Positions 1,661 through 60,077 of a stretch of DNA of 64,000 nucleotides are shown one piece after another (the first letter of the stretch is position 1; every line of letters starts with the position of its first letter). The notes below the pieces were generated by a model that saw nothing but the letters and a program-made list of their open reading frames with translations, was not told the origin of the DNA and did not search any database. The translations under genes were made by a program, and so were the position numbers. Origin of the DNA: an uncultured archaeon (GTDB lineage: Archaea; Asgardarchaeota; Lokiarchaeia; Sigyniarchaeales; SOKP01); the NCBI GenBank assembly GCA_964447495.1, contig CAYUTF010000004.1, forward strand, positions 13,438-77,437. Reading direction: 5' to 3'.

Positions 1661-1662
1661 AA

Positions 1663-4674: not shown

Positions 4675-5126
4675 AAATGAATGAAGTTATAATAGAAGAA
4701 GCACAAGAAAAAGAATGGGAACCTAAAATTATAGCTTTCTTATGTAATTGGTGTTCTTATGCAGGAGCGGACCTAGCGGGAGTGAGTAGGATTCAATATC
4801 CACCTAATATAAGAATAGTTAGAGTTCCTTGTTCAGGACGTTTAAATCCCTTCTTTTTAATTAGAAGTTTAGTTGATGGATGGGATGGTGTTTTAGTTTC
4901 AGGATGTCATCCCGGAGATTGCCATTATATTAGTGGAAATTTAGTTGCTCGAAGGAGATTTGCGATTCTTAACGATTTATTAGAATTTTTTGGGATAGAA
5001 CCTGGAAGGGTGAATTTCATGTGGGCTTCTGCGGCTGAAGGAGAACGATTTGCAGTTTTGGTGCGTAAAGCTACAGCGATTGTTAAAAAGTTAGGACCCA
5101 ATAAGAAATTTAAAAAAGAGTGGTAA
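4671..5126 (+). CDS. mvhD: MvhD/FlxD-like iron-sulfur subunit (short form, 151 aa)
   Basis: FLCNWCSYAGADLAGVSRIQYPPNIR...CSGRLNP...GCHPGDCHY. ATGA overlap with the upstream hdrA. Paralog of 890-1660 without the C-terminal extension. Confidence 0.85.
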   Translation: MKMNEVIIEEAQEKEWEPKIIAFLCNWCSYAGADLAGVSRIQYPPNIRIVRVPCSGRLNPFFLIRSLVDGWDGVLVSGCHPGDCHYISGNLVARRRFAILNDLLEFFGIEPGRVNFMWASAAEGERFAVLVRKATAIVKKLGPNKKFKKEW

Positions 5127-5129
5127 AAT

Positions 5130-6152: not shown

Positions 6153-6153
6153 G

Positions 6154-7212: not shown

Positions 7213-8044
7213 TATATATATTCCAATGTTAACCAATATTAAATCAATAACATCTGAAAATAAAGCAAACGATATAAAAACTTTTGAGTTTGTATTTCAA
7301 AAGGAAGAAGACCTGAATAGTTTTAAATATGTCCCTGGTCAATTTTCTGAGTTAAGTATTATTGGAAAAGGTGAGTGCCCAATAGGAATTGCTTCCTCCC
7401 CAACTGAAGAGGGATCAGTTAAGTTCACTATTAAAAAAATGGGAACAGTGACCTCACATTTTCATAAAAGAGAAGCAGGGGATGTGGTAGGAATCAGAGG
7501 TCCTTTAGGAAACGGATGGCCTGTAGAAGATATGAAAGGAAAAAATATTGTGATCATCGGAGGAGGTTTTGCCTTTTCTACATTACGTTCTCTTATCGAA
7601 TATATATTACATGAAGAAAATAGAAAGAACTATGGAAATTTAACAGTTATATATGGAAATCGGGATTCTGGAGAGGTATTATATAGATCTGATTTAGAAA
7701 AATGGGAAAAACGAGACGATATTAAACTAGTACTCACGATTGATCGCGAAGAGAAGGGTTGGAACAAGAAGGTTGGATTTGTAGCCCCCATTGTTAAGGA
7801 AGTAGCACCCTCTTCTGAAAATGCAATAGCAGTAGTTTGCGGTCCTCCTATCATGATAAAAACAACGATTTCAGTACTGGAAGAGTTGAAGTTTGAAGAC
7901 GAGCAAATCCTTAACTCCCTAGAGATGCGAATGAAGTGCGGAGTAGGCAAATGTGGGAGATGTAATATTGGAAATAAATATGTTTGTTTAGATGGCCCCG
8001 TTTTTTCACTAGCTGAGTTGAAAAAACTGCCAAATGAATATTAA
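7172..8044 (+). CDS. FAD/NAD(P)H-binding oxidoreductase with C-terminal [2Fe-2S] (AsrB / sulfhydrogenase-gamma / PyrK family; FlxA-like)
   Basis: Ferredoxin-reductase-type fold signature (PGQF...GxxS, GGGFAFS) and terminal CGVGKCGRCNIG...VCLDGPVF motif. The start is uncertain: TTG at 7205 (12 nt after GGAGG) or ATG at 7226 would avoid the 41-nt overlap. Confidence 0.7.
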   Translation: MRSIKRRRNLSLLDIYIPMLTNIKSITSENKANDIKTFEFVFQKEEDLNSFKYVPGQFSELSIIGKGECPIGIASSPTEEGSVKFTIKKMGTVTSHFHKREAGDVVGIRGPLGNGWPVEDMKGKNIVIIGGGFAFSTLRSLIEYILHEENRKNYGNLTVIYGNRDSGEVLYRSDLEKWEKRDDIKLVLTIDREEKGWNKKVGFVAPIVKEVAPSSENAIAVVCGPPIMIKTTISVLEELKFEDEQILNSLEMRMKCGVGKCGRCNIGNKYVCLDGPVFSLAELKKLPNEY

Positions 8045-8071
8045 AAAAAAATTAAAAGGTAGAAAAATAAA

Positions 8072-9154
8072 ATGGTTAAAACTTTTGAAGATTTAATAAA
8101 AGATGTACATGAAAAAGGTTTATGTGGAGAGTGTGGAGGTTGTGTTACTTTTTGTTCAGCTGGAGATATCGGTGCAATCATGATGTCTGAATCAGGACCT
8201 CCAAAATATGTAAATAAAGATAATTGTAAGGAATGTGGATTCTGTTATTATGTATGCCCTCAAACTCATGTTCTTAATGATCTTTTAAATGATAAATTTG
8301 GATATGTACCCCCAATAGGAAAATGGATCAATATTACTTCAAGTAAAACTACTTCTGAGGAAATAGCAAATAAAGCAACTGATGGAGGAGTAGTTACCTC
8401 CATATTGAATTATCTCTTAGATCATGATTTAATTGATGGTGCCATCGTATGTAAAAAAGAAGGTCCTTTTAATAGGGTACCATTTTTAGCCACGTCAAAA
8501 GAAGATTTAATACAAGCGGCAGGATCATACTATGATCTTTCAAAACAAGTTATTGGATTAGAAAAGTATAATACTTTTATACCAACCAATACTAAATTAA
8601 AAGATTTACTTAATTCAGATTTGTTAAACATAGCAATAGTAGGCACTCCTTGCCAAATACATTCCATTAGAAAGATGCAACAATTGAGTATACTTCCAGC
8701 TCATATTGTCAAATATACCTTGGGCCTTTTCTGTAATTTAAATTTCTCTTTTAATGATGATGATCGGAAAAAAATGGAACAGATTTTTCATTTTAAATTT
8801 AATGAAGTTGAAAAAATGAATATTCGTGAAGATATTATTCTTAATCTTAAAGGAAATAAAATCAAACATATCTCCTTTTCAGATATTAATGAATTCGCAC
8901 GTCCAGCATGCAGAGCGTGCCCTGATTTTTCTAATATATATGCTGATTTATCATTCGGCGGATTAGGATCCCAAGAAAAATATACAACTACAATAATAAG
9001 AACTAAAACTGGCGCAGAGATATATAACAATGCTCTTAAAGAGGGTTATATTAAAGAAGTCAATCGATTTAGTCCATCGAATATAGATTCAAATATTTTA
9101 GGAAAAATCATTGATTTCAGTGAACGAAAAATAGAAAGAGCTGAGAATTTTTAA
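8072..9154 (+). CDS. Coenzyme F420 hydrogenase/dehydrogenase beta-subunit family protein (FrhB/FdhB/FpoF-like)
   Basis: N-terminal CGECGGCVTFC and CKECGFCYYVCPQ motifs, then DGGVVTSILNYLLDHDLIDGAIV and GTPCQIHSIRK, typical of the FrhB family. Last gene of the redox cluster. Confidence 0.7.
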   Translation: MVKTFEDLIKDVHEKGLCGECGGCVTFCSAGDIGAIMMSESGPPKYVNKDNCKECGFCYYVCPQTHVLNDLLNDKFGYVPPIGKWINITSSKTTSEEIANKATDGGVVTSILNYLLDHDLIDGAIVCKKEGPFNRVPFLATSKEDLIQAAGSYYDLSKQVIGLEKYNTFIPTNTKLKDLLNSDLLNIAIVGTPCQIHSIRKMQQLSILPAHIVKYTLGLFCNLNFSFNDDDRKKMEQIFHFKFNEVEKMNIREDIILNLKGNKIKHISFSDINEFARPACRACPDFSNIYADLSFGGLGSQEKYTTTIIRTKTGAEIYNNALKEGYIKEVNRFSPSNIDSNILGKIIDFSERKIERAENF

Positions 9155-9183
9155 CACTCTACTTTTTTACTAATTTTTAAAAT

Positions 9184-10149
9184 TCATAGATTAAAGATAT
9201 TTCCGGTATTATATATTGTTCCGTCCAATTCTAATTCAATTTGTCCTCCCGATGCGATCTTAATTGCAGAACTAATCCCTTCTAATACATTATTCATCAT
9301 AAAATCATATGCTTTGAAGCAATCTTTTAGTTGTTCACTTTGATTTTCCAAAAGGCATTTAGAAATTGCAGGAATAAGTTCTGGAATGAAATCTTGGCTA
9401 ATCATAATCTCCTCTGAATCGACCAGGGTTTCTCTTGAAATAGAAAAAGGATTTTGGACATCAATCTTTGCCAGCATCACTTTACATACAAATAGTGAGG
9501 CTTTAATCTCCCTCATTATGAATTTTATTCGGTTTTTATCATCTAAGTATTTTTTAAAGGTCAAAGCTTGTATTATGTCATCATTAGTGATGGTATCTTT
9601 TGTATCCAATAATTTACTTACTCGCTCCGAGACTCTCTTCGTTGAAAGCATTAGTTTTAAATTCATGGTATTTTTTTCTGTATAATCCTTGTGAAAAGCT
9701 GAAAGGAAGGACCTATACCCTTCATCTTGGGACTTATCCAATTGAAATCTCTTTTCCTTAAATTTATCCATAAAATCTTTTATAATGAGAAATTTCAATT
9801 TTAATCGATGTAGGGCAAGATAGAGGCACATTCTTGTTTTCGTATATGCTACAACGTTTCCCATCCTGAATCTGTCGTGATGATCTCTTTCGTACATCAC
9901 TATAGGCTTTAATCTGTTTACCACTACATCAATGAAATATTCGATTATTCTTTCTAATGGTTCAACATCTACTACTTTAAAAACTTCTATAAGTGATTGA
10001 CTAGTAGGTTGAGATTTTGGGATTTCTTTAATCATATCATAATTATATCGTTCTAATAAGAGAGAAGTTAAAGCTTCCATTTCTAGAACGGTCCTACAGG
10101 GAACAAAAACTTTATTAATATCATTTAGAATAACACTACTTTCTGGCAT
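9184..10149 (-). CDS. Hypothetical protein (321 aa), no recognisable domain; divergent from the Dna2-like/Mre11/Rad50 operon
   Basis: Long uninterrupted ORF with protein-like, mostly helical-looking composition. No motif recognised. It shares its first 13 nt (ATGCCAGAAAGTA, MPES) with the divergent gene at 10445. Confidence 0.6.
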   Translation of the reverse strand: MPESSVILNDINKVFVPCRTVLEMEALTSLLLERYNYDMIKEIPKSQPTSQSLIEVFKVVDVEPLERIIEYFIDVVVNRLKPIVMYERDHHDRFRMGNVVAYTKTRMCLYLALHRLKLKFLIIKDFMDKFKEKRFQLDKSQDEGYRSFLSAFHKDYTEKNTMNLKLMLSTKRVSERVSKLLDTKDTITNDDIIQALTFKKYLDDKNRIKFIMREIKASLFVCKVMLAKIDVQNPFSISRETLVDSEEIMISQDFIPELIPAISKCLLENQSEQLKDCFKAYDFMMNNVLEGISSAIKIASGGQIELELDGTIYNTGNIFNL

Positions 10150-10444
10150 AATGAATCAGACTATAAAATCATTAATCTTTGAATTTCACGATTCATTGAA
10201 TTGAATCTTAAATTAATTTAATATCAATGGTTATTATCAAACACTATGTAATAAAATTTTACTTTCATTTAGAGTATTCTTTAGAGAATAATGAGCTTGC
10301 TTAGTTAGTTTTATGATATCTTTTAATAATTAAATAATTATTAAATTTATTTAAAAGGAATTAAGTTTATTAGTAAACTGAATACGCCTATTATTTTATA
10401 AAGTTTATCAAATTAACTTCACAATAAAAATCTCAGGTTGGCAT
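10150..10444. promoter_or_regulatory. Divergent promoter/control region between the orphan gene and the Dna2-like operon
   Basis: 295-bp very AT-rich spacer between two divergently oriented starts. Multiple TATA-like tracts. Short palindromes TATTCT-ttag-AGAATA (10275-10290) and GATTCA-n6-TGAATC (10190-10207). No transcription start can be called from sequence alone. Confidence 0.4.
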
Positions 10445-13400
10445 ATGCCAGAAAGTAATTTTTCTAAAACCCTACTGCAGAGCTATATCATTACCAATTG
10501 TAAAAGACGTTTATTTTTAGAGTTGGGGAGAAATCAACCGCAACTTTGGTTTGATCCTGTAAGAGATGTTCCCTCTAAACCCCCAGAGCGGTTGTTATTT
10601 CAGAAAAAATATTTAGTAGATAATGGGAAAAAATTTGAAAAGGAAGTATATTCATATCTCAAAAATTTAAAAAATACTAAATATAAAATCAGTGATAATG
10701 GCAATATCACAAATTCTGCTTTAAATAAGGAATTTTTAATCCAGTGTCATGATTTTTTGAAAAATAATCAAGATCAGATATTGATGTTGCTAGAATTTCA
10801 ATATAATATTCCACAATCATTTTTTTTTGATATTTTTCCTTCTAGATCTGGAATTAAATCTATTCCAGTTGATTATGCTGATCTCAGACCAGATATTATC
10901 TTATTAGGTAATGATATTAATAGATATGTCGAAGAAGTGTTTGAAATAACTCATGAAGGTTTAATTCACAAAGTGAGCCAATCTGATTTAAACATAAGGA
11001 TAGGAATTTCGATTTTTGATATAAAATTTATTCAAGATGAACATGTTAGCAAAAAGCACTTTTTAGAAGTATTTTATTATTTGAAGGCTCTTGCTATACA
11101 ACTTAGAGAATTGAATCTTCACGAACAATTTTATATAAGAGCCAATTTAAATGGTATTTTTCCTCTACCTGGAGATAAGAAATTAGGTGATATTCATATA
11201 ATTCAAGATCTTTTTGAAAAATCATTTGTAAATATTATTAAGTGGCGGGAAGCAGATCGTATATTTTCACGAGTGATGGATACAATAAGGACATTATGGT
11301 TAAATTCGCCTTGTCCTATTGAACAAATCGATATCAATATTCACCAAGGGTGTGGATATTGTCAATATATAGAAGACTGTAAAATAACTTTAGGAATGGG
11401 AGAGGATAATGATCCAAAAGAATGGTCCTCTCGATTACTACCATTTACTTCTCAATCTATTGCCCAACAGTTGATAGAGGAATATAATTGTAATACTATT
11501 GGAGATGTATTAAATAAAATAGATGATATTAAAATCGGTACCATTCCAAAACCATTATACTCTGAATTACCCACTCTTAAAATGAAAGCGGAGGCTATTG
11601 TAAATAATAGAACTGTCTTTCCGTCAGCAGGACAAACACATTCTTATGCCATACCTCGCTACTCTCCGATTGCGATTAATTTTGATGTAGAATATGATAG
11701 GAATAATGACAAGATTTTTGCTATAGGTATTTATTTAAAGATTTTTATCCATTCTAAACTGAGTTATCATGCAATTTTTGATAATTGGTGGAGAGTTTGG
11801 AAAAATTCTTTAACCAAAAAAAGTTCTCCAGCTGAGATTCAAAAGGAATTAAATCAATACCTTATTCGAGAGATTCCTTTAGAAATAGTTGAGCGTTTTT
11901 TAAAAAATCTTTCCATATTAAAATCAATTCAGATATATTTAAGAGGAGAAAAGTCAAAAGAAGGGACAATTATACACTATAACTTTGCCAGAATAAATAA
12001 AGACAATATAAAAGACAGTGAAGCAAAATTAATTGTAAATGCCATACATCGGTTTAATATAATTTTGGAAATTTGTAATATTCTTGAAGATTTTATTGTT
12101 ATTGATGACCAATATGGAAGATATTTTGGTCCTGACACTAGTATATTCTATTGGTCACGAAACCAATTAGATCATTTTCAAGATATGATGGAACGTCACT
12201 TAGATTACATTTTAAGCAAACAAGAAGCACGTGAAGCCTATCAATCAATATTAATGTATTTTACTCCTTCAGATAGTGAGGTAAGTCACCCTTACCAGCA
12301 TAAAAAATTATTTGATGTCCAAGCATTTGTAGATTCGTTTATAGGATTTCCAGATATAATTAATTATACATGGCATGGTATAGCTGAAAGGTTGTTTAAT
12401 TATCATAGTCATCCAAAATATTGGATTCCGCATTTCAATTTTTTAGATCTAACTAATTGGTTAAAATATCTTTCTAAGACAGATAAGTTGGATAAATTGA
12501 AAATAGAGAATGAGATTAAACATCAAATAGTTATGAAACTTAACTTCATCAATAGAATTAGAGAGCATTTCCAAAGAGAAGGACGTTATAATTTATCTAA
12601 AAATGCAAGGGTAATTAGTAAATCTCAATATGGAAGTGCGATATTACCTTATTTCTATCACGATATTGCTCATGTATGGTATCTCTTTTCAAAATTGAAT
12701 AACGCCTTACAACAACAGGATGATGAATATTATCGAACGATCTTTCCTCAATTTAGTATAGGTAAGTTATTTTCAGCACGAGTAAATAAACTTGAATTAC
12801 ATGATTCATCAGGTAAGACGAAATATTATACTTTTGAAACAAGAGATTTATCCAGTAATATGAAAATAAGTGAAGGTGACGTTGTATTATTAATTCCAAA
12901 CTTCAAACGTGGGATGAAACTAGACAAACAAATTTTTAAGTGGCAAATATATATTGAAAAAATAACATGGGATAATTCTATCAATGGAAATCGCATAACT
13001 ACCAAACCTACTTATAGTAATATATTTGAACAATGCGAAGCAGAAGATATAGATCCTAAAACTCAGCAATGGTACCTTTATCCTATAAGTTCTGACAATT
13101 GGTCGAATAAACTTCACAAACCTAATAACACAGGCTTATTAGAACGTGAAGGATTTGGACGTTCCTGGTTAGGATTTCGACTCGCTTATTTATGGGGCAT
13201 ACGTACTGATCCTACTTTACTTTGGCCTCCAAAATGGGATTATTCTACTCCAGTAATTTATTTTTTTGCTCCGGAATTATTGATGCATTTTTCGAATTCA
13301 TTTCAAAATGAACTTTCAACTCCTATATATCCTATCCCCGATCCTTCTCAAAAAGAAGCAATTATAAATTCCTTAAATCATGTTATTTCTGGAATTCTTG

Positions 13401-14917
13401 GTCCTCCTGGCACTGGAAAATCACAAACTATAGCTGCTTTAATTGATGAGTTTATAATCCGCAAGAAAAAAGAAAAAAAACCGTTCAAAATATTAGTTAC
13501 ATCATTTTCTTATGCAGCACTTCGCGTTGTTATTGAAAAAATAAGAACAGGGAGAACTATAAATAATACAACTACAGAATCCTCAAAAATACAGATGGTA
13601 TTTTTGCGATCGGAAACACAAGACCCTATTGAATCAAAAAGAGGGAGTAGATATATTGATGATTTACTCAGAACGGGAACATCATGGAAGTTGAATGGAG
13701 AAAGTCGTATTGTAACTCCTAAAAATTCTTTAGAACAATCATTAGAAGAATCATTTATCCTTTTTACAAATGCACATCATTTGTATTATTTACATGAGCG
13801 AGTAGAAGATGATTTTGCTTTTGATTTAATCTGTGTAGATGAGGCAAGTCAATTACCCACTGATTATTTCATGTCAAGTTTATTATATATCCATAAATTT
13901 AATTTGAATCTGAAAAAGCCAGAAAATCTTGACATTACTTTTAATCATGATGTTAAGAATAAAGAGGATGTTATTAATCTTCAAATCGATAAAAGTTCGA
14001 TTTCGTTTGGAATTGAAGACCTCACAAAAATTGTAATTGTAGGAGATCATAATCAGTTACCCCCAGTGAGGGTGAAAAATCCACCAAAAAATTTGGAACT
14101 TATTCTTGATAGTCTTTTTAGTTATTATATTAAAGGACATAAAATATCAAAAAAACAACTTAAGATTAATTATCGCTCACACCAAGATATTGTATCTTTT
14201 ACTTCACTATTGGGGCTTTACAAGAATATTAAACCCTACAAATCTAATGCGTCAAGAGTCTTGGAAGGAAATCTAAATAATATGAAACTTTCATGGGTTA
14301 AAGAAGTATTGTCACCCGAAAGAGTTGTTTGTTCCCTAATTCATAATCGTAAGTTTGAAATCGGGATTAGTGAATTTGAAGCAGATTTAGTATGTGAATT
14401 AGTATCGGGATTCTTTGATATGATAAAACCTCAAAGTATTAAAGAGGAAAAAAAATTTTGGGCGGAACGCATAGGAGTCGTAGCGCCCCATAATGCCCAA
14501 GGGCGGGCAATCATTAGGAAAATATTTACAAAATTTCAGGAAAGAACGTATTTAACTGATGCCCGATTAATGGAATATCTTAAAAGTACTATCTATTCAG
14601 TAGAAAAATTTCAGGGTTCTGATCGAGATTTAATAATTACCTCAATTGGATTATCAGATGAAGATAAAATAAGTACTGAAGAGGATTTTATTTTTAATTT
14701 GAATCGATTCAATGTCTTGACATCTAGAGCTAAAAATAAAATTATTTTTATTTCCAGTGATAAATTTTTGCAATATATTCCTGAAGATAGAAAAGCACTG
14801 GAAAATGCGTCTAAAGTGTATCTATATGCAGAAGATTTTTGCAATCAACAAATTCTTCTCACCGTAAAGAATGAAAAGAATGAAAATGAACAAATCATAT
14901 TTAAGTATAAAAATTAA
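10445..14917 (+). CDS. Dna2-like multidomain nuclease-helicase: Cas4/AddB/Dna2-type Fe-S PD-(D/E)XK nuclease + HhH + RNase H-like (TM0106-family-like) domain + beta-barrel + Upf1/Dna2-type SF1B helicase
   Basis: Cys19 plus C303-x2-C306-x5-C312 (CGYCQYIEDC). Nuclease motifs RPD150 and FD192-I-K194, then EVFYY. HhH-like residues 331-357. FD414-V-E416 exonuclease-like DxE. ISEGDVVLLIP barrel. Helicase motifs GPPGTGKS (13400-13423), VDEASQ (13835-13852), VGDHNQLPPV, YRSH, APHNAQ, KFQGSDRD and NVLTSRAK. Confidence 0.8.
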   Translation: MPESNFSKTLLQSYIITNCKRRLFLELGRNQPQLWFDPVRDVPSKPPERLLFQKKYLVDNGKKFEKEVYSYLKNLKNTKYKISDNGNITNSALNKEFLIQCHDFLKNNQDQILMLLEFQYNIPQSFFFDIFPSRSGIKSIPVDYADLRPDIILLGNDINRYVEEVFEITHEGLIHKVSQSDLNIRIGISIFDIKFIQDEHVSKKHFLEVFYYLKALAIQLRELNLHEQFYIRANLNGIFPLPGDKKLGDIHIIQDLFEKSFVNIIKWREADRIFSRVMDTIRTLWLNSPCPIEQIDINIHQGCGYCQYIEDCKITLGMGEDNDPKEWSSRLLPFTSQSIAQQLIEEYNCNTIGDVLNKIDDIKIGTIPKPLYSELPTLKMKAEAIVNNRTVFPSAGQTHSYAIPRYSPIAINFDVEYDRNNDKIFAIGIYLKIFIHSKLSYHAIFDNWWRVWKNSLTKKSSPAEIQKELNQYLIREIPLEIVERFLKNLSILKSIQIYLRGEKSKEGTIIHYNFARINKDNIKDSEAKLIVNAIHRFNIILEICNILEDFIVIDDQYGRYFGPDTSIFYWSRNQLDHFQDMMERHLDYILSKQEAREAYQSILMYFTPSDSEVSHPYQHKKLFDVQAFVDSFIGFPDIINYTWHGIAERLFNYHSHPKYWIPHFNFLDLTNWLKYLSKTDKLDKLKIENEIKHQIVMKLNFINRIREHFQREGRYNLSKNARVISKSQYGSAILPYFYHDIAHVWYLFSKLNNALQQQDDEYYRTIFPQFSIGKLFSARVNKLELHDSSGKTKYYTFETRDLSSNMKISEGDVVLLIPNFKRGMKLDKQIFKWQIYIEKITWDNSINGNRITTKPTYSNIFEQCEAEDIDPKTQQWYLYPISSDNWSNKLHKPNNTGLLEREGFGRSWLGFRLAYLWGIRTDPTLLWPPKWDYSTPVIYFFAPELLMHFSNSFQNELSTPIYPIPDPSQKEAIINSLNHVISGILGPPGTGKSQTIAALIDEFIIRKKKEKKPFKILVTSFSYAALRVVIEKIRTGRTINNTTTESSKIQMVFLRSETQDPIESKRGSRYIDDLLRTGTSWKLNGESRIVTPKNSLEQSLEESFILFTNAHHLYYLHERVEDDFAFDLICVDEASQLPTDYFMSSLLYIHKFNLNLKKPENLDITFNHDVKNKEDVINLQIDKSSISFGIEDLTKIVIVGDHNQLPPVRVKNPPKNLELILDSLFSYYIKGHKISKKQLKINYRSHQDIVSFTSLLGLYKNIKPYKSNASRVLEGNLNNMKLSWVKEVLSPERVVCSLIHNRKFEIGISEFEADLVCELVSGFFDMIKPQSIKEEKKFWAERIGVVAPHNAQGRAIIRKIFTKFQERTYLTDARLMEYLKSTIYSVEKFQGSDRDLIITSIGLSDEDKISTEEDFIFNLNRFNVLTSRAKNKIIFISSDKFLQYIPEDRKALENASKVYLYAEDFCNQQILLTVKNEKNENEQIIFKYKN

Positions 14918-14926
14918 GGTATCATC

Positions 14927-16498
14927 ATGAGTTCTGTAAAGTTTTTACATTTAGCAGACATTCACTTAGGAAAAAAACAATACAATATTTTACAAAGATA
15001 TTTTGATTATTTTGAAGCCTTCCGATCAGTATTACATAAAGCAATTGAACAAGAAGTAGATTTTATTCTAATAAGTGGAGATTTAATTGATAGTGATGAA
15101 GGTGTAAATCCTTCTATGTTAAGAGAGATTATTAATATTCTTACTTCTTTTAAAACTGAATGTATCAAAAATCTACAAAGAGAAATACCAATAATATGTA
15201 TTGAAGGAAATCATGAAAATCCTCTTTTCTCTGATCTTACTTGGTTAAAACTAGTGGCAGATTTAGATTTTATAATTTTACTATCAGGAGATTACGATAA
15301 TAAAAAAAATCAAATTTCTTTTGAAGAATATTCCTCTACTGCGCATTCGGGTGGTAAGATTGTAATTAAAAATTGTAGTATTTATGGATTGAACTATTTT
15401 GGTAGTGCTACTTCTGATTTACTCCCTCTTTTGGAAAATGCTATTTCGAGGAATGAAAATACTTTTAATATTTTAATGATGCATTTTGGTATTACTAATT
15501 ACGATGATAAGAAAACGGGGATAAATTATTCTCCTATTCTTGAAAAGTTACATCAATCAATTGATTATTTAGCATTAGGGCACTTCCATAAGCAATATAG
15601 TATACCGGACCGTCAACCATGGATTTTTAATCCGGGAAGTCTGGAAGTGAATGAGGTCTCTGAAACCTTTCAGGAAAGAGGAGCATTTCTGATTGAAGTC
15701 TTAGACAATAAGAAAATGCAAGTGAGAAGATTACTATGCGTTGAAGGAAATACAATGGAACGTCTTTCAATTCCTAATCGAAGGTTCATGGTTTTGAAAT
15801 ATCTTTCGATTGAAGGGCTTAATTCATTCCATGAAGCTCAAGATTACATTATTAGAGAATTAACTAAGTATGGTGTACCTCTTAAATCAAATCAAACTCT
15901 TGAAAAAACAAACTTAGATAAACCCATTCTCTACTTTGCTGTTGGAGGAGTAATTAGCTATTCACAATTAGAAGTGGATTTAACTTCACTCAGAAATAGA
16001 ATTAATGAAAAATTTGATATTTTAGGATTAAAATTAAGCAACAGACTAATTTCTAGTATGGACCAAGAAATAGCCTTTGACAAGGATTTAAGTGTGGAAG
16101 ATATTGAAAAAGAGATATTCCTCGGAACACTTGATTTAGAAAAGCGTTTTAAACCCTTTAAAGGACAGATATATGATATATTTCAAAATTTAAAAACGCA
16201 ATTAGGTGGGAAAATAAATTATAAGAAGATAAAAAGTCAAGTAGAATTATGGATTGTTTCTGATAAGGACATCTTCAATCAATTCTTATCTGAAATTAAA
16301 CATAAAAATGCTCTGACAGAAAAAAAAGAAGAACAGATTTCGCCTAAAAAAAAAGATAGAAAAAAGAAAAACCAAAAAATTTTAAAAGGTGAGGAAGAGA
16401 AGGAAGAAGAACAAGATCTAAGTGATATTGATTACAATGACTTATTCGATGGGGAGGATATTGATGATTTAATTGATGATGAGGATTTAGATTTATAA
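14927..16498 (+). CDS. mre11: Mre11 double-strand-break repair nuclease with Lys-rich then strongly acidic C-terminal tail
   Basis: Phosphoesterase motifs LADIHLG, SGDLIDS, EGNHENP, MHFG and LGHFH. The N-terminal about 100 aa read like archaeal Mre11. Start is 9 nt after the upstream stop, with AGGT upstream. Confidence 0.85.
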   Translation: MSSVKFLHLADIHLGKKQYNILQRYFDYFEAFRSVLHKAIEQEVDFILISGDLIDSDEGVNPSMLREIINILTSFKTECIKNLQREIPIICIEGNHENPLFSDLTWLKLVADLDFIILLSGDYDNKKNQISFEEYSSTAHSGGKIVIKNCSIYGLNYFGSATSDLLPLLENAISRNENTFNILMMHFGITNYDDKKTGINYSPILEKLHQSIDYLALGHFHKQYSIPDRQPWIFNPGSLEVNEVSETFQERGAFLIEVLDNKKMQVRRLLCVEGNTMERLSIPNRRFMVLKYLSIEGLNSFHEAQDYIIRELTKYGVPLKSNQTLEKTNLDKPILYFAVGGVISYSQLEVDLTSLRNRINEKFDILGLKLSNRLISSMDQEIAFDKDLSVEDIEKEIFLGTLDLEKRFKPFKGQIYDIFQNLKTQLGGKINYKKIKSQVELWIVSDKDIFNQFLSEIKHKNALTEKKEEQISPKKKDRKKKNQKILKGEEEKEEEQDLSDIDYNDLFDGEDIDDLIDDEDLDL

Positions 16499-16509
16499 GG
16501 TGAAAAAGA

Positions 16510-19230
16510 ATGTTATTAAAAAAAATTGAATTGGAAAATATTAAAACTCATAAGAAAACAGTAATCCCTTTCAAGAAAGGGTTAAATGTCTTTCATGGAA
16601 ATAATGGTACAGGAAAATCAACGGTATTAGAGATGATTGGGTTTACATTATTCGACTATTTAGAAGGAAGATCCCATGATGTATATGTGAGAGATATTAA
16701 TAATGATAAACAAGTATTTGGAACTATAAAATTATGGATAATCGGTCTGAATAACGAACCATATATTATAGAACGTAATATTGGCAAATCTGAAATAGCA
16801 GTATATAATGCTTTAACTAATCGTAAAATAGTTAAGATAGAGAAGATATCTCAGTTAAAAAAGTGGATCGAAACTCAGATAGGGCTTAGTAAAGGTATTG
16901 AACTTGATAAATTATTTAAAACATCAATTGGAATACCTCAAGGAACCTTTATTGACCCTTTCCAAAGGGAACCTAGAGAAAGAAAGAATTACTTTGATCC
17001 AATTTTAAGTTTAAAAATTTATGAAGTTATTTGGAGTGAACTAGGAAAATTAGGAAAAGGAGCATATGAGAGACTTTTACATGAGATTAAGGAAGAAATC
17101 AGTGAAATCACTGGTGAGATTAAAAATAAGTCGGTTTTAATTAATAACATAGATAAAGTAACTAAGGATTTTGACGCTTTAGAAATAAAAGTTGGTAAAA
17201 TAAAAGAAGTGGGAAAAAAGATTAAAGAGAAATTTGATGAGTTAAAAAATTTAAAAGAGGAGAGTAAAAGTGTTCAAGAAGATTACGAAAAGTTACAGCT
17301 TAGAGAAAAAGATGCACAAATAAGGGTTTCTGAATTCATTATTAAATTGAATCAGGTTAAAGAAGCTAAGCTTATTTGTGATAAAGCAAAGAATAATTAT
17401 GAGCAATATGAACTACAAACAAAAGAACAGAAGAAACTTGAAGCTGAACTGAGCGATCTTCAAGAAAAACAAAAAATATTACAAGATTTAAAAACGGACC
17501 ACTTACATATAGAAAGTGAGAAAAATAATTTAATAAATCAAATTAATGAAGCAAAAGAAGCCCTCGAAAATAGTATTAAACTTAAAAGCAAATACAATCG
17601 ATATCAGGAACTTGAAGCAGATTTATTATTAATAAATGAAGATTTGACCCGATTTAAGACTATAGATGAGGGTTTAACTAAAAAAAGATCAGATTCAGAA
17701 ACTTTTAAAAAACAATTAGAGCTATCCCATAAAAAAATTGAATCATTTTCCAAATTAGAAACGAAGCTTAAAGAATTAGAAACCCTTGAATTAAAAAAAG
17801 AGGGTATAAAATTAATTATATCCGATTTAGAAAAAGAAATAGCTTTAATTAATCAAAATTACGAGTATTTATTAACAGGTAAATGCCCTTTCTTTAATCA
17901 AACTTGTAGAAATATTGAAGAGAAGAAATCTGATCCGAAATCTCTTTTAAAACAAGTAAAATATAAGAAAGATTTATTGAAAAAAAGCATAGACGAAGTA
18001 AAACAATTAGAAAAAGACTTAGAAGCAAAAGAAGAATTTCATATCAAAATTGAGAGTTTAAAAGAAGTAAGAATTAGATTAGCGATTAATCAAAAACGAT
18101 TTGAAGAACTAAATGAAGAAATAAAAAAAGAGAATGAATATATAAAAAATAAAGATACTTATTGGGAAAGAAAGAAGAAATTGGATGATGAGAAGAGAGC
18201 CTTAGAAAATTCAATTAATGATTATATCACTTTCAGTAAATTATCTGAGAAGCTTCCTGAATTAGAAAAAAGAATGAATCCTTTAATGTCAAAATTAGAG
18301 GAAATTGAAAAAGTAATGCGTGATATGGAGAAAGAAACCAAAAAATTGGATCAAATTCCCAAATTATTCAAAAAAATCCAAGAAGAATTAGCGAATTTAA
18401 AGAAAGACTACACATTATATCAAACTCATATTAAGCAAGCAGAAGAACTTCCTAAAATAGAACAAGATTATAATTCTAGCCTATCTGCTTTAGAGAACCT
18501 CAAATTACAAATACAAGAAAACCAAAAGCTGATAAAAGACTTGAATTCTAAATATGATGAAGCTGAGTTTCAAAAGTACGAAGAATATTACAGAAAAAAC
18601 GAGAAAACTAAAACTGAGTTAGAAACACGTATGAATGAACGAAAATTGAGACTAAATGAATTAAATGAAGAACTTAAAAAAATTGAGGAAATTGAAACTA
18701 ATTTAGTTAAGTTAAATAAAGAAAAAGATAATTTAGAAGTCCAGCAGTTATTTATTGAAAAATTAAGGATGTGGATAAGAGAATTTATCCCGAAAATGAG
18801 AAGTGCATTAATAAGCAAGATAAATATTATTGCTTCGGAAATATATAGAGATATAAGAGAGGAAGAGGATGCGGTTCTCAAATGGCGGGATAATTATGAT
18901 ATTGAAATCGTTACTCCTAAAACTGTTAAAAATTTCTTTAGACTATCTGGAGGAGAGAAAATGTCAGCAGCATTAGCAGTCCGATTAGCAATACTAAAAG
19001 TGCTAACAAATGCTAATTTTGCTTTTTTTGATGAACCCACTACTAATTTAGATGAGACAACCCGTAAGAATTTGAGTAAATATATTTATAATATAAAAGG
19101 GTTTGAACAATTATTTGTTATCTCCCATGATGATTCCTTCAAACGTCACAGTGAATACGTTGTAAGATTTACTAAAGATGCAAATGAGATTACGCATATC
19201 GATTATCTTACTAAGGTTAATGAAGAATGA
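16510..19230 (+). CDS. rad50: Rad50 SMC-like ATPase
   Basis: Walker A GNNGTGKST, Q-loop IGIPQGTF, long K/E/L-rich coiled coil, central Cys pair GKCPFFNQTC, signature LSGGEKMSAALA, Walker B FAFFDEPTTNLD and H-loop ISHD. AAGGTGA lies 6 nt upstream of the ATG. Confidence 0.85.
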   Translation: MLLKKIELENIKTHKKTVIPFKKGLNVFHGNNGTGKSTVLEMIGFTLFDYLEGRSHDVYVRDINNDKQVFGTIKLWIIGLNNEPYIIERNIGKSEIAVYNALTNRKIVKIEKISQLKKWIETQIGLSKGIELDKLFKTSIGIPQGTFIDPFQREPRERKNYFDPILSLKIYEVIWSELGKLGKGAYERLLHEIKEEISEITGEIKNKSVLINNIDKVTKDFDALEIKVGKIKEVGKKIKEKFDELKNLKEESKSVQEDYEKLQLREKDAQIRVSEFIIKLNQVKEAKLICDKAKNNYEQYELQTKEQKKLEAELSDLQEKQKILQDLKTDHLHIESEKNNLINQINEAKEALENSIKLKSKYNRYQELEADLLLINEDLTRFKTIDEGLTKKRSDSETFKKQLELSHKKIESFSKLETKLKELETLELKKEGIKLIISDLEKEIALINQNYEYLLTGKCPFFNQTCRNIEEKKSDPKSLLKQVKYKKDLLKKSIDEVKQLEKDLEAKEEFHIKIESLKEVRIRLAINQKRFEELNEEIKKENEYIKNKDTYWERKKKLDDEKRALENSINDYITFSKLSEKLPELEKRMNPLMSKLEEIEKVMRDMEKETKKLDQIPKLFKKIQEELANLKKDYTLYQTHIKQAEELPKIEQDYNSSLSALENLKLQIQENQKLIKDLNSKYDEAEFQKYEEYYRKNEKTKTELETRMNERKLRLNELNEELKKIEEIETNLVKLNKEKDNLEVQQLFIEKLRMWIREFIPKMRSALISKINIIASEIYRDIREEEDAVLKWRDNYDIEIVTPKTVKNFFRLSGGEKMSAALAVRLAILKVLTNANFAFFDEPTTNLDETTRKNLSKYIYNIKGFEQLFVISHDDSFKRHSEYVVRFTKDANEITHIDYLTKVNEE

Positions 19231-19452
19231 GTTCATTAATTTACACACGATCTTATTCTAAGAATTATATTGATTGAGCATAAGGCACAACTCAAGGGAA
19301 AAGAATTTACATCTTGAATATCATAGGCATTCCTAAAAGTTTGATGTTTGACCTTTTTTATATATTGATGAGATTTGATAAAAATGTCAAAATTTATATA
19401 GTTAACCCGAATACATTTTCATTACCAATCAATCAAAAAAATATATAAATTT

Positions 19453-19770
19453 GTGATGACTATGGGCTTATTTATGATGACTGTATGGTATCCTCCCCAT
19501 AAAGCTCCAGATATGGCAAAACTATATTTAAAGCAACCTAAAAAGCTACCCTTTGTTAGTAAATGGAGAGTATTTAATACTTCCGGTGGTTTAAATGGTA
19601 TAAAGCAATATCATTTAATATATACCGAACGAGGCAAAGCAGAAGAAGCCTTGGTAGAATTAGAAAAATATTTTATGCCTTTTTTAACTGTTGATGGTTT
19701 CAGATACGATATCGAACATTTAATGGGCGTATCTGATGGTTTCAAATTGCTTGGGATGGAATGGAAATAA
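19453..19770 (+). CDS. Hypothetical small protein (about 100 aa)
   Basis: ORF with ordinary composition, followed by an oligo-T run. No motif recognised. The start is ambiguous (GTG 19453 or one of the downstream ATGs). Confidence 0.45.
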   Translation: MMTMGLFMMTVWYPPHKAPDMAKLYLKQPKKLPFVSKWRVFNTSGGLNGIKQYHLIYTERGKAEEALVELEKYFMPFLTVDGFRYDIEHLMGVSDGFKLLGMEWK

Positions 19771-19786
19771 TCATATTTTTAATTTC

Positions 19787-19796
19787 TTTTTTTTTT
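19787..19796 (+). terminator. Oligo-T tract, candidate archaeal intrinsic terminator
   Basis: Run of 10 T beginning 17 nt after the stop at 19770. Archaeal RNA polymerase terminates at oligo-T tracts. Confidence 0.35.
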
Positions 19797-19905
19797 AATA
19801 GAGGTCCCATATCTTTATATTCACTACGCGTAACCCACTTTTTAGGATAGAGTATCTAAAAACGGTCTTCATATATTTAAATATTAGTTTGGTGATTAGT
19901 ACTAT

Positions 19906-20292
19906 ATGAGGAAAAAGTGGACAATAATTATTAGGACTCCCCTGCTAAGGAAAATACGGGATAATTTGAGGGATCTTTGGGTTGCATGGGCAAGAAGTCA
20001 GTATGATGACTTATTCAATAAACGCAGAACCTTGGAGCGAAATGAAGACGGAAAGTTGAAAAACCTAGATGGGTTTAATCAAGAAGAACGTAAAAAAATT
20101 GAAGAATTGGGAGGAAAAATATCTTTGTTGCGTGATATTGAAAATGATTCAATTTGCATATGCACTGTTTGCGGAAAAGAACATAGAGATATGACTTATA
20201 ACCCTGTAGATAAGAGTTGGTACTGTGTGGAATGCTATCACGAAAATCAAGAGTTCTATAAGGATACTAAAGAATCCTTTTTATATCCCTGA
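19906..20292 (+). CDS. Small zinc-ribbon protein (128 aa)
   Basis: C-terminal CTVCGKEH...n...YCVECYHEN (CxxC...CxxC) after a basic helical N-terminus. TATA-like ATATATTTAAATATT about 20-35 nt upstream of the ATG. T11 run downstream. Confidence 0.5.
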   Translation: MRKKWTIIIRTPLLRKIRDNLRDLWVAWARSQYDDLFNKRRTLERNEDGKLKNLDGFNQEERKKIEELGGKISLLRDIENDSICICTVCGKEHRDMTYNPVDKSWYCVECYHENQEFYKDTKESFLYP

Positions 20293-20317
20293 CTTCTTTC
20301 TCTTGTTTTGCCATAGG

Positions 20318-20328
20318 TTTTTTTTTTT
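20318..20328 (+). terminator. Oligo-T tract (11 T), candidate terminator
   Basis: T11 run 26 nt after the stop at 20292, in the convergent spacer shared with the actin gene. Confidence 0.35.
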
Positions 20329-20458
20329 CATGTTTATATTAACAAGAATGATTACTAAAGCCCTTTAATGTAATTTTTTTAATAAAATAATAAAAAGTAA
20401 AAAATAAAAAACTTAAATAAAAGGTTATTTTTTTAATTGGGCATAGGAGATTAGCCCA

Positions 20459-21604
20459 TTAGAAGCATCGGTGTATTACCTGCGGTCCCATCTCCTTATA
20501 CTCTCGACGGGTAACCCACATGCGATGAAATGTTTTCAGAGAGCTTAAAATTGAGCCACCAATCCACACGGAGTACATACGCTCGGGAGGAGCGATAATT
20601 TTAACATCAACTGATTCTGGAATTTGTTCTTTAATTTCTTTAGTCAAACGTTCCTTAATTCCAGGAAACATTGTGGAACCACCAGAGAGCACAATATTGC
20701 TGTAAAGATCTCTTCGCAAGTCAACATCACACTCTGAAATAGAACCTACAATCACATCGTCTAAAGGTTCTAATTCTTTTCCAATAACAGAGGGATTAAA
20801 GAAACATTCAGGGGCTAAAAATCGCTCTACGCCAACATTAATTGTTTCTCCATCCGGAAGCATATAGCTCTTCTCCATTCCAGCAACTTTCTTACTAAGC
20901 ATCATTTCTTTCTCGGGATCTATTGCCACATAGCATAATTTCTCCTTTATATCTCGTACAATTTCCTTTTCAGCGGATGTAGTGAATGAATAACCTTTTT
21001 GTCGAAGCAATCTTTGTAAATAGGTAGTGATATCACGTCCTGCAAGATCAATTCTCTGGATAGCGTGACTTAAGGCGAATCCTTCGAATATTGGAACAAC
21101 GTGAGAGACTCCATCTCCAATATCTATAACACATCCAGTAGTACGACCAGAAGCATAAAGAGATAAGACTGCTTGCATTGCAACATAGAGAGCAGGCACA
21201 TTAAATGTTTCAAACATTATTTCGGCCATTTTTTCTCTATTTGGTCTTGGATTTAGAGGAGCTTCAGTTAAAAGAACGGGATGTTCACTTGGATCAATTC
21301 TCAAATCGGTGTAAAAGGTATAATGCCAGATTTTTTCCATAGCGGTCCAATCTTCTATAATACCATGCTCGACGGGGAACATTAATTTTAATACACCCTT
21401 CAATTGCATAGCTTCTTCACCGATGTAATACTCACGAGTATAATGCTCAACATCAGTCATTATAGATTCATATTTTGGATAACCTATAAGTGTAGGAAAA
21501 ACCGATCGAGGTTGATCTTCACCTGCGAAACCATTCTTGGAAATACCGGTACCATTGTCTACGACTAAAGCCTTAGCGTTTAAAAAACTTTCTTCTTCTG
21601 CCAT
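20459..21604 (-). CDS. Eukaryote-like actin (Lokiactin-type)
   Basis: Full-length alignment by eye to eukaryotic actin: [57 protein letters not shown] and C-terminal HRCF. Acidic N-terminus MAEEES. Visibly higher G+C than its neighbours. Confidence 0.95.
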
Positions 21605-22050: not shown

Positions 22051-23490
22051 ATGGGCTTCAATCCTCGATATATTAAAGAAAATATATCTCAAATTGGTAT
22101 TAAAGAAGCAAAGACTCACTTGAAAAGATGGATTAGTGATTCAAATGATCCTCAGCTTAGAAATGAAGCTTTAGAAATATATGGTGAGTTGGAACAAGGA
22201 AAAGATTATAAATTTTTAGAGGAAATTTTCTTATCGGATGAAGATATAAGTTTAAGATTATTATCAGGAAAAATATTAGGAGCTCATTATTTTCAAAACA
22301 AAAAACTCATTAAACTTCTCGAGTTTGTTCTATACTCAGCGGAAAACATAAATCAAAAATTCTTTGCATTGGATCTTTTAGCGAAATTTAATTTAAAAAA
22401 ATCTCGCAACATAATTCAAGATTTTATGGAAAATGTCATAATTGAAAATTTAAATGGAGAGGCGAGAGAAAATTTAACAAATTTACCTATTACCGAATAT
22501 AATATAGACATAAACAATCAAACTTTAGAATTATGTTATAATCTCATCCTTTTTAATTACTATAAAAAAGTGTGTGGATATAACGTTACTCTAAGAGATG
22601 GATTCATCATTTTATTGAATTGTGAAGGTTCAAATTTAAGAAAAATATCTGATATACCAGGAATAAACAAGCTTTACAAATTAGAATATCTTATGCTTAA
22701 AAGAAATAAAATATCCGAGATAGATGCTCTAGAATATTTAACAACTTTAAAATTCCTAAATTTAGCTTATAATCAAATAGAAAAGACAAAAAGTTTAGAT
22801 TATTTAAGTAAATTAGAGGAACTCATATTAACTGGTAATAAAATTAAAATCGTAGAGAATTTTAAATTACCAAACCTTAAAAAGCTCTTTTTAGACAAGA
22901 ATTTGATTTCTGAAATTCGAGATTTAGGAAACTCATTGAAATTGGAGCAACTAAACTTGAGTTCAAATAATATAAGAAAAATGGTGAATCTTGCAAACTT
23001 TCAAAGGTTAAAGGCATTAAATTTATCAAATAATGATATCGAGGTCATATCCGGCCTTGAGAATCTTCATAACTTAATCTTTTTAAACTTAAATGATAAT
23101 AAAATCTCTAAAATTGAAGGTTTGAATCATTTAGTCAATCTTAAATTCCTAAATATCTCTAATAATAATATTGCAAAGCTTCAAAATCTAGAAAATGTCC
23201 ATAACCTCACACACTTAGAAATATCAAAAAATAAAATCTCTAAAATTGAAGGTTTAGATAATTTAATTAATCTTCAGGAACTTTTCCTTGATAAAAATAA
23301 TATTACTAAGATCGAGGGTTTGGAAAATCTAAATAGCTTGATTATTTTGTTTTTAGAACGTAATGATATTAAAAGCTTTGATTTGAAGGATATAGAACTC
23401 TTGAAAAATTTAAATTTTATTTTCTTGAACGAAAATCCATTAGATATAGAGAGTAAGCGTAATTATGAAAAACGTACTCGATTTCCATGA
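22051..23490 (+). CDS. Leucine-rich repeat protein (SDS22-like 22-residue LRRs) with N-terminal HEAT-like helical region
   Basis: About 12 consecutive LxxLxxLxLxxNxIxxIxxLxx units from residue about 186 to 463. The N-terminal helical repeats include RNEALEIYGEL. Confidence 0.85.
   Translation: MGFNPRYIKENISQIGIKEAKTHLKRWISDSNDPQLRNEALEIYGELEQGKDYKFLEEIFLSDEDISLRLLSGKILGAHYFQNKKLIKLLEFVLYSAENINQKFFALDLLAKFNLKKSRNIIQDFMENVIIENLNGEARENLTNLPITEYNIDINNQTLELCYNLILFNYYKKVCGYNVTLRDGFIILLNCEGSNLRKISDIPGINKLYKLEYLMLKRNKISEIDALEYLTTLKFLNLAYNQIEKTKSLDYLSKLEELILTGNKIKIVENFKLPNLKKLFLDKNLISEIRDLGNSLKLEQLNLSSNNIRKMVNLANFQRLKALNLSNNDIEVISGLENLHNLIFLNLNDNKISKIEGLNHLVNLKFLNISNNNIAKLQNLENVHNLTHLEISKNKISKIEGLDNLINLQELFLDKNNITKIEGLENLNSLIILFLERNDIKSFDLKDIELLKNLNFIFLNENPLDIESKRNYEKRTRFP
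22606..23439 (+). repeat. 66-bp-periodic coding tandem repeat (LRR array)
   Basis: In-frame 22-codon periodicity. Includes a perfect 26-nt duplicate AATAAAATCTCTAAAATTGAAGGTTT at 23098-23123 and 23230-23255, 132 nt (two units) apart. Confidence 0.6.
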
Positions 23491-60000: not shown

Positions 60001-60077
60001 GTAAAAATAAGAAAAGTTTTTACAAAAATAATAATTCTATTAATTAACTAAAGTTGAGTTAATAGTGAGGAATTAAG

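Follow-up and report, generated by a model that had tools for sequence, protein, structure and literature searches.

A Dna2/Bad-type helicase-nuclease gene conserved with mre11 and rad50 in Lokiarchaeia: a probable DNA end-resection operon

In archaea, a helicase and nuclease machine for the resection of DNA ends is encoded together with Mre11-Rad50 in the herA-mre11-rad50-nurA operon (Constantinesco et al. 2002, 2004, as cited in PMC7776575). In eukaryotes, the MRN/MRX complex hands over to Dna2, which combines N-terminal iron-sulfur (Fe-S) nuclease motifs of the RecB family with a barrel placed before the motor and an Upf1-like superfamily 1B (SF1B) helicase. Bad, a DNA2-like helicase-nuclease of bacteria and archaea described from Geobacillus stearothermophilus (Wilkinson et al. 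2020, PMC7430649), has three domains, namely an iron-staple nuclease at the N-terminus, a central domain that is conserved, and an SF1B helicase at the C-terminus; it has an Fe-S cluster, acts as a single-stranded DNA endonuclease and translocates 5'-3', and its central domain, which is absent from eukaryotic Dna2, was reported to have a completely unknown fold. Here, a 64,000-nucleotide (nt) stretch of Lokiarchaeial DNA with a GC content of ~30% (hereafter the window) was analysed, in which a gene for a 1490-amino-acid (aa) helicase-nuclease (gene 1; 10445-14917, + strand) is followed by the genes for Mre11 (gene 2; 14927-16498, + strand; 523 aa) and Rad50 (gene 3; 16510-19230, + strand; 906 aa). 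This trio is a conserved operon that probably serves the end resection of double-strand breaks, with a Dna2/Bad-type motor-nuclease that carries an RNase H-like domain working together with Mre11-Rad50.

By their spacing and Shine-Dalgarno-like strings, the three genes form one tight operon. Genes 1 and 2 are separated by 9 nt (TAA ggtatcatc ATG) and genes 2 and 3 by 11 nt (TAA ggtgaaaaaga ATG), and the stop codons are overlapped by the Shine-Dalgarno-like strings TAAGGT (gene 1/2 junction) and TAAGGTGA. The open reading frames (ORFs) are exactly as stated in the initial annotation, which had listed three same-strand genes 9 and 11 nt apart with such elements.

The arrangement is conserved across Lokiarchaeia. 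One genome per GTDB species was surveyed, yielding 61 gene 1-family loci, and a neighbour-joining (NJ) tree divided the family into clade A (Promethearchaeota orthologues), clade B1 (Lokiarchaeial paralogues) and clade B2 (Myxococcota and 'Deltaproteobacteria'). A clade A locus was taken as informative when it had enough downstream sequence, and in 33 of the 34 such loci mre11 adjoins the gene 1 orthologue, with rad50 next wherever the contig reaches. The trio is present in P. syntrophicum MK-D1, L. ossiferum and Harpocratesius repetitus, and gene 1 is also linked to mre11-rad50 at L069, L070 and L071. The sole orthologue without this neighbourhood, at L019, has a run of N downstream and was treated as a scaffold join, not as a true exception. 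The linkage holds down to 38% gene 1 identity and outlasts rearrangement, as seen from the divergent orientation at L020 (an inversion), the different gene order at L068, and the genes inserted between gene 1 and mre11, namely a leucine-rich-repeat gene at L069 and a CitMHS-type transporter gene in Promethearchaeum (L016, 14968-17581; L011, 6965-8353). The MK-D1 insert also comes with an oxidoreductase-like ORF on the opposite strand.

When all neighbouring ORFs were clustered, the trio alone was conserved. Across 23 loci, gene 1 shows the strongest conservation within the trio, and pairwise divergences correlate with r = 0.95 for gene 1-Mre11, 0.94 for gene 1-Rad50 and 0.94 for Mre11-Rad50, values that are descriptive and not a test since the pairs are phylogenetically non-independent. 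This co-divergence fits inheritance of the trio as a unit. Because 33 of 34 loci are linked and the three proteins co-diverge at r = 0.94-0.95, the adjacency of gene 1, mre11 and rad50 exceeds chance.

Two Promethearchaeota-type loci place gene 1 beside herA and nurA. L068, reached by starting from the most divergent Mre11 homologues, is a contig of 63% GC that carries DUF8166-herA-mre11-rad50-gene 1-nurA on one strand (5756-17572); its gene 1 orthologue is 38% identical over 1508 aligned positions and falls inside clade A of the NJ tree. L059, a GTDB species representative, carries gene 1-DUF8166-herA-mre11-rad50-nurA (1118-9264). The herA genes match DUF87 (4e-41 in L059) and the nurA genes PF09376 (1.8e-21 in L059). 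Gene 1 therefore sits, in two different orders, inside exactly the classical archaeal end-resection cluster, and this co-clustering is, in our assessment, the strongest evidence for a repair role of gene 1. In both loci, a DUF8166 protein of ~200 aa is always encoded directly 5' of herA. HerA-NurA is a hexameric ring with a NurA dimer, whereas gene 1 encodes a single polypeptide with predicted SF1B motor, PD-(D/E)XK and RNase H-like parts. The initial annotation had proposed that gene 1 replaces HerA-NurA in the operon. This agrees with the absence of herA and nurA from the trio locus itself in the window and in most Lokiarchaeia, where it differs from the classical operon; because L059 and L068 carry all partners together, gene 1 is an added partner of HerA-NurA and not a general replacement.

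The HerA-like gene to which the initial annotation had pointed at 62640 does exist (62640-64000, - strand, running off the window end; product P0329, 536 aa), and its sequence marks it as a paralogue distinct from operon-type HerA, being 25% identical to the L068 protein. Its 119 closest relatives are 68-83% identical, and those with a source name are labelled Promethearchaeota/Lokiarchaeota, Thor-, Heimdall-, Odin-, Hermod- or Hodarchaeota. In two other metagenome-assembled genomes (MAGs), from Promethearchaeota and Heimdallarchaeota, it belongs to a conserved Cdc48-FEN1-PIN-NAD kinase-aIF5A-SRP54 block, of which FEN1 and Cdc48 also neighbour it in the window; no NurA was found beside the HerA-like gene in the window or at the loci of these two MAGs. 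The HerA-like gene of other MAGs is preceded by a gene for a ~200-aa protein, of which the copy in the window genome has a weak Saf_2TM match. The HerA-like gene with its 198-aa neighbour was considered as a displaced operon HerA module and rejected, given the 25% identity to L068 HerA and the unrelated small partners. This part of the window (58945-62324) also holds eukaryote-signature and replication genes, Cdc48 and a FEN1-like gene (58945-60000), the latter called from the gene's sequence and its synteny with XPG-domain genes in L064 and L065.

Gene 1 encodes a fusion of nuclease, RNase H-like, beta-barrel and SF1B helicase parts, as read from its ORF and translation (aa numbers refer to its product unless another protein is named). 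Residue conservation was read from 39 aligned full-length homologues, and AlphaFold2 (AF2) models covered aa 1-960 (predicted local distance difference test score, pLDDT, 80) and aa 1-730 (pLDDT 89). The N-terminal part (aa 1-320; 10445-11404, + strand; pLDDT ~90) is a putative PD-(D/E)XK nuclease whose modelled core runs alpha-beta-beta-beta-alpha-beta. At the motif level, it has the four RecB-family nuclease motifs. C19, D150 (RPD), D192-x-K194, E208xxxY212 and C303-x2-C306-x5-C312 are kept in 39 of 39 homologues; the middle motif of the window protein reads D192-I-K194, and E208xxxY212 has E where Q stands in the RecB-family motif. The four Cys match the iron-staple pattern C...CX2CX5C, the defining RecB-family signature of the AddB, Cas4, Dna2 and Bad nucleases (PMC7430649), and Fe-S binding is predicted. 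PDDEXK_1 was weakly matched (E = 0.018) by one of 16 gene 1 family members, and a profile of the nuclease-block alignment returned nothing from PDB.

The nuclease is followed by a two-helix element (SIAQQL...TIGDV), possibly helix-hairpin-helix (HhH)-like, and a linker helix (aa 321-404; 11405-11656, + strand), with modelled helices at aa 337-347, 352-361 and 372-387 and invariant P333, S338 and L343. The adjoining stretch (aa 405-720; 11657-12604, + strand) is predicted to be an RNase H-like domain, with the strand order beta1-beta2-beta3-alpha-beta4-alpha-beta5 in the AF2 model (pLDDT ~90). E416 (beta-1), E526, E548, PYQHKK (616-621) and H663 are invariant, and D418 (beta-1) and D668 nearly so, with one exceptional sequence each among the 39 (Y at position 668 in one). 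A Foldseek search of BFVD returned A0A5J6VIM9, a 471-aa giant-virus 'RNase_H superfamily protein' (E = 1.1e-6, probability 1.0), in an alignment of 690 columns that runs across both N-terminal domains. The TM0106-family model TIGR03491 matched the bacterial member L029 over the junction of the two domains, aa 321-404 falling inside the matched stretch (1.3e-5; 24.4 bits, below the cut-off of 97.45 bits); L029 was the only one matched among ten members, and the window protein gave no match. Since the BFVD match spans both domains and L029 matches TIGR03491, aa 1-730 are predicted to form a TM0106-like two-domain module of nuclease and RNase H-like domain. Apart from this L029 match, the ten members gave nothing significant against NCBIfam and PHROGs, and a profile of the central block found no match in Pfam or PDB. 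Foldseek of the aa 1-730 model against PDB also gave sub-significance hints of RNase HII, EndoV and Argonaute. TM0106 proteins likewise have a Cas4-like Fe-S nuclease and then an RNase H-superfamily domain; they differ in being ~460 aa long (model of 462 positions), and the L029 score is 24 vs 97 bits. To our knowledge, TM0106 proteins have no helicase, and we know of no function assigned to them. The whole central block (aa 321-777, ~450 aa), which comprises the HhH-like linker and the RNase H-like domain, is conserved in both clades and holds a long helix in the AF2 model (aa 681-712), in line with the short coiled coil noted for Bad.

Further downstream lies a probable beta-barrel of the Upf1/Sen1 '1B' type (aa 778-880; 12776-13084, + strand), with strands at aa 778-853 in the model. 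Foldseek of the aa 1-960 model against PDB gave SETX, Sen1 and Upf1 (probability 0.97-1.0, 109-182 aligned columns); the matches are mainly barrels, both helicase 1B and unrelated beta-barrels, and those to SETX, Sen1 and Upf1 would belong to aa 778-880. The C-terminal part (aa 956-1450; 13310-14794, + strand) is an SF1B helicase core of the Upf1/Dna2 type. AAA_11 (2.2e-14) and AAA_12 (1.7e-20) together cover aa 966-1440, the sole part of gene 1 recognised by Pfam, and the helicase motifs include Walker A GPPGTGKS (986-993), Walker B DEAS (1132-1135) and motif VI VLTSRAK (1424-1430). The top PDB sequence match is mouse DNA2 (phmmer 7e-9; profile 5e-15, 57 bits), with UPF1 (profile 4.5e-13, 51 bits), IGHMBP2 and Sen1 close behind.

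In layout, gene 1 is a TM0106-like dual-domain module with a barrel and an SF1B helicase, not the two-part plan of eukaryotic Dna2. Of the Dna2 layout read in the initial annotation, the iron-staple motifs and the SF1B helicase stand; the ~450-aa RNase H-like block between nuclease and barrel, which eukaryotic Dna2 lacks, is a better fit to Bad. The likeness to MRN/MRX with Dna2 lies in the combination of Mre11-Rad50 with N-terminal Fe-S RecB-family nuclease motifs, a barrel before the motor and an Upf1-like SF1B helicase. Mouse Dna2 is the top PDB match by sequence score (57 vs 51 bits for UPF1), and in a published phylogeny eukaryotic Dna2 appears akin to certain Asgard homologues (PMC12680538). 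Unlike the eukaryotic set, the Lokiarchaeial genes are operon-encoded, and the operon holds no gene for Nbs1/Xrs2, Sgs1/BLM or RPA. Compared with Bad by its published description, gene 1 appears to fit this three-domain class better than eukaryotic Dna2, sharing the iron-staple nuclease, the conserved central domain and the C-terminal SF1B helicase, and the methylase neighbour of bad is also seen at P0324, a distant gene 1 homologue. The two differ in that Bad is linked to a Type III-like methyltransferase and gene 1 to mre11-rad50, and in the predicted RNase H-like nature of the gene 1 central domain. AddAB, AdnAB and RecBCD are also helicase-nuclease machines that resect ends by means of two nuclease activities, and their RecB-type nuclease has an Fe-S cluster (AddB); however, their motors are SF1A (UvrD-like) or mixed, their nuclease trails the motor, they have no link to Mre11-Rad50 (SbcCD), and their sequences resemble gene 1 in motifs only.

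Genes 2 and 3 encode archaeal-type Mre11 and Rad50, as judged from ORFs, motifs and family profiles. The Mre11 translation reads ADIHLG (its aa 10-15), GDLID (51-55), GNHEN (94-98), MMHFG (184-188) and GHFHK (218-222), in agreement with the initial annotation, which had ascribed all phosphoesterase motifs to it; Pfam Metallophos matches at 4.7e-16, and the top NCBIfam matches are archaeal Mre11 models (Mre11_Pyroc, 1.2e-30). The Rad50 product has two ABC ATPase halves around a coiled coil, with Walker A GNNGTGKST, Q-loop IPQG, LSGGE, Walker B FFDEPT and H-loop ISHD. It aligns end-to-end with NCBIfam Rad50_Sulf (protein 1-891 on 1-861 of 872 profile positions, 3.3e-44) and matches NCBIfam PRK03918 at 2e-51. 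The Mre11 C-terminus (nt 16400-16495) has a lysine-rich basic stretch and then an acidic tail, DDLIDDEDLDL, with a recurring (I/L)DD motif. This tail, which is kept in most orthologues and absent from MK-D1, could serve as a docking motif, with gene 1, RPA or Rad50 as the partner. In MK-D1, the linked gene carries a source name starting 'DNA double-str', after 'exonuclease SbcCD subunit D' (P0162). In the subclade nearest to the window (gene 1 58-59% identical), a second Rad50/SMC-like ATPase gene of ~840 aa lies 3' of rad50 (L002, 17459-19978; L014, 19123-21639; L027, 19092-21632; L048, 19110-21701); the window has no such gene.

Gene 1 belongs to a small family. We collected 64 homologues, mostly full length, whose named sources are Lokiarchaeota/Promethearchaeota MAGs and one Hermodarchaeota MAG. 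An exhaustive phmmer search with aa 1-730 against 1.84 billion representative proteins found only 138 relatives, most of ~1400-1750 aa and the remainder seemingly fragmentary, and the distant full-length members scanned (P0297, P0298 and P0307) all have a C-terminal AAA_11/AAA_12 helicase. In Promethearchaeum (L011, L016; including MK-D1), gene 1 has a C-terminal extension of ~160 aa. Clade B1 members (L030, L042, L054) are second gene 1 copies of ~1600 aa and ~34% identity, located away from mre11-rad50. Clade B2 copies stand at ~30-35% identity (28-35% over the best aligned segment), are full length and keep all catalytic residues; they occur in many MAGs of Myxococcota, Bradymonadales and Polyangiales (L029, L033, L036-L039, L044-L047, L049-L051, L055, L056, L061). 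Such full-length copies in bacteria imply that the gene was transferred between Lokiarchaeia and Myxococcota. The Lokiarchaeial paralogues and the Myxococcota copies make up a sister clade of the Mre11-Rad50-linked orthologues. Neither mre11 nor rad50 was near any of the 21 loci of clades B1 and B2, and no neighbour was conserved. P0324 (locus L066), also full length, is more remote still (hhalign probability 100, E = 1.3e-60) and forms the outgroup of the tree; it, too, is without Mre11-Rad50.

Around the trio, the window is of housekeeping character, with a ferredoxin/F420-dehydrogenase-like cluster upstream and lokiactin downstream (20459-21604, - strand; Pfam Actin 5.9e-133), 1.2 kb from the trio. 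The gene 5' of the trio (9184-10149) is on the - strand and is divergent from gene 1. Between them, an AT-rich intergenic region of 295 nt (10150-10444, + strand) is likely to be the operon promoter region, with a TATA-like TTTATAAA ~43 nt and an AGGT 7 nt 5' of the gene 1 ATG. The oligo-T run CCTTTTTT (19352-19361, + strand), ~120 nt past the rad50 stop, may be an archaeal terminator. An Rfam search of 9000-21000 found no element. Genes for large leucine-rich-repeat proteins are a recurrent feature close to the trio or its paralogue (window, 22051-23490; L069, 5352-7901; L071, 16016-18712; L042, 6152-10498).

Several observations weigh against assigning the trio to end resection. Distant species share no synteny around the trio, and the window flanks show none with other loci. 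Both partner proteins miss the NCBIfam equivalog cut-offs (Mre11_Pyroc, 106.7 vs 600 bits; Rad50 PRK03918, 175 vs 700), which may be because no matching model is Asgard-named: the Mre11 and Rad50 models matched are named for Pyrococcus, Sulfolobus and haloarchaea, and the library is without an Asgard-named one. The Rad50 hook is atypical, being C-P-x5-C (CPFFNQTC, Rad50 aa 459-466, nt 17884-17907) and not CxxC. In the alignment, this spacing is found in the window Rad50 and 26 of 28 Lokiarchaeial orthologues, with CPVC only in L026 and L057. The Rad50 that the initial annotation called canonical is thus so in its ATPase motifs and its full-length alignment to Rad50_Sulf, and not in its hook. 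For gene 1, no Dna2 (PF08696), Cas4 or PDDEXK profile of Pfam gave a match at E <= 0.1, another difference from eukaryotic Dna2; of the families proposed for checking, AAA_11 and AAA_12 were recovered, and TM0106 was matched only below its cut-off in L029. Foldseek of the aa 1-730 model against PDB gave nothing significant (Cas4 SSO0001, E = 0.89), and the RNase H-like call draws on one BFVD match, one sub-threshold TIGR03491 match and fold topology. Also to be counted here are the neighbourhoods of two relatives: P0324 (L066, 5896-12281) has an N6/N4 DNA methylase gene directly 5' of it and nSTAND, UvrD-ParE and DEAD-MZB genes in the same island, and the bacterial L051 (144-14533) ends a DUF6079-PglZ-DEAD BREX-like row.

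Such neighbourhoods suggest another role for the trio, that of an anti-virus or anti-plasmid defence in which a Bad-, Nhi- or Mokosh-like effector would have recruited Rad50/Mre11-like proteins (compare Lamassu, SbcCD-type) to sense or destroy foreign DNA ends. The methylase neighbourhood of P0324 is the same as that reported for Bad, and the Lokiarchaeial paralogue L030 adjoins a Schlafen AlbA_2 gene, so that defence-type settings are among those in which the wider family is used; in addition, the flanks of the trio vary between species, and in PADLOC gene 1 matches MkoA (1.2e-30) and DpdJ, and Rad50 matches LmuB (3.5e-28). However, the MkoA and DpdJ matches cover the helicase 2A part only and the LmuB match the generic ABC-ATPase part only, Mre11 has no PADLOC match, and Rad50 aligns end-to-end with archaeal Rad50 models at better scores than with PADLOC. 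No Nhi model matches gene 1, and Nhi, Mokosh MkoA and Dpd share no full-length hidden Markov model match with it. Defence systems are patchy in distribution, whereas the trio occurs once in almost every Lokiarchaeial genome and co-diverges as under vertical inheritance. It also co-clusters with the repair genes herA and nurA (L059, L068), PLSDB plasmids, GenBank phages and IMG/VR contain no gene 1 relatives, no homologues turned up in the phage, plasmid and viral collections searched, and the window flanks are metabolic and cytoskeletal genes, not a defence island. The concern raised in the initial annotation, that the trio might be confined to one genome and sit in variable defence islands, is answered by the neighbourhood survey and by the housekeeping context of the window; its Nhi-like alternative finds no Nhi match and keeps some weight through the relatives at L051 and L066. 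On this evidence, we consider it unlikely that the trio is a defence system.

A mainly replicative gene 1, acting in Dna2-like fashion on long Okazaki flaps or on reversed or stalled forks with RNase H-like primer removal, would be encoded with Mre11-Rad50 on account of their common work at stalled forks and not of joint break resection. Eukaryotic Dna2 has a dual role in replication and repair (PMC7430649), a 2025 replisome study lists Dna2 among its analysed components and finds that eukaryotic Dna2 appears related to some Asgard homologues (PMC12680538), and an RNase H-like domain would suit the removal of primers or hybrids. Yet gene 1 is linked to mre11, rad50, herA and nurA and not to replisome genes, the window FEN1 (58945-60000) lies 40 kb off, and gene 1 is not established as the Asgard Dna2 homologue meant in that study. 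A mainly replicative function is improbable by our estimate, and it would be compatible with end resection. That the helicase gene merely stands beside mre11-rad50 with no functional meaning finds its sole support in the flanking genes differing between species and is effectively refuted by the conservation data: the linkage in 33 of 34 informative loci, seen at identities as low as 38%, its persistence through the L020 inversion, the L011, L016 and L069 insertions and the L068 reordering, and the co-divergence at r ~0.95.

For the end-resection operon that we favour, we infer biochemical activities, polarity and the order of events from the observed gene order, domain and motif conservation, co-inheritance and herA/nurA co-clustering. 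Mre11-Rad50 would recognise and tether DNA ends and make the first cuts, as is known for the family, and gene 1 would be its long-range helicase-nuclease partner. The SF1B motor would load on the 5'-terminated strand and translocate in the 5'-3' direction, with the iron-staple PD-(D/E)XK nuclease ahead of the motor cutting the displaced 5' strand, as in Dna2 and Bad, and the product would be a 3' tail for RadA. The RNase H-like domain, in which the acidic and His residues E416, D418, H663 and D668 are invariant or nearly so, most likely provides a second activity, for example 3' end trimming or the removal of RNA-DNA hybrids or flaps. In the ancestral state, gene 1 would have stood beside HerA-NurA in one cluster, an arrangement that L059 and L068 retain; the operon of most Lokiarchaeia would have lost herA and nurA, with gene 1 as the sole helicase-nuclease encoded with mre11-rad50.

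Asgard Dna2-like helicases are already known, since according to the 2025 Asgard replisome study eukaryotic Dna2 seems to be related by phylogeny to certain Asgard homologues; Mre11 and Rad50 are unmentioned there (PMC12680538). In the literature library searched, we found no paper linking Asgard or Lokiarchaeial Mre11-Rad50 to a Dna2-like gene, nor one describing the present arrangement, which the initial annotation had likewise taken to be undescribed. The operon link, the RNase H-like domain, the gene 1 loci that include herA and nurA, and the relatives in Myxococcota and in defence-type contexts appear to be new.

In summary, the trio bears on two open questions, how ends are resected in archaea lacking HerA-NurA and where the eukaryotic MRN-Dna2 axis originated. 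It offers a class-wide operon as a concrete clonable candidate, with orthologues in the cultured MK-D1 and L. ossiferum, and it yields a first hypothesis on the fold of the central domain in the Dna2/Bad-type enzyme class, namely RNase H-like; if true, the same fold would also account for the Bad central domain that was described as 'completely unknown'. A single helicase-nuclease family serves in a repair operon as well as in defence-type surroundings, and the coexistence of gene 1 with herA and nurA at some loci points to a stepwise route from an archaeal to a eukaryote-like resection set-up. We put forward only tentatively, as a rather doubtful extension, that gene 1 belongs to an Asgard lineage sister or ancestral to eukaryotic Dna2 and that its coupling to Mre11-Rad50, first with and then without HerA-NurA, was the forerunner of the MRN-to-Dna2 hand-over; on this reading, eukaryotic Dna2 would have lost the RNase H-like domain. 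The trio offers a testable prokaryotic counterpart, and possibly a forerunner, of the eukaryotic MRN-Dna2 axis.

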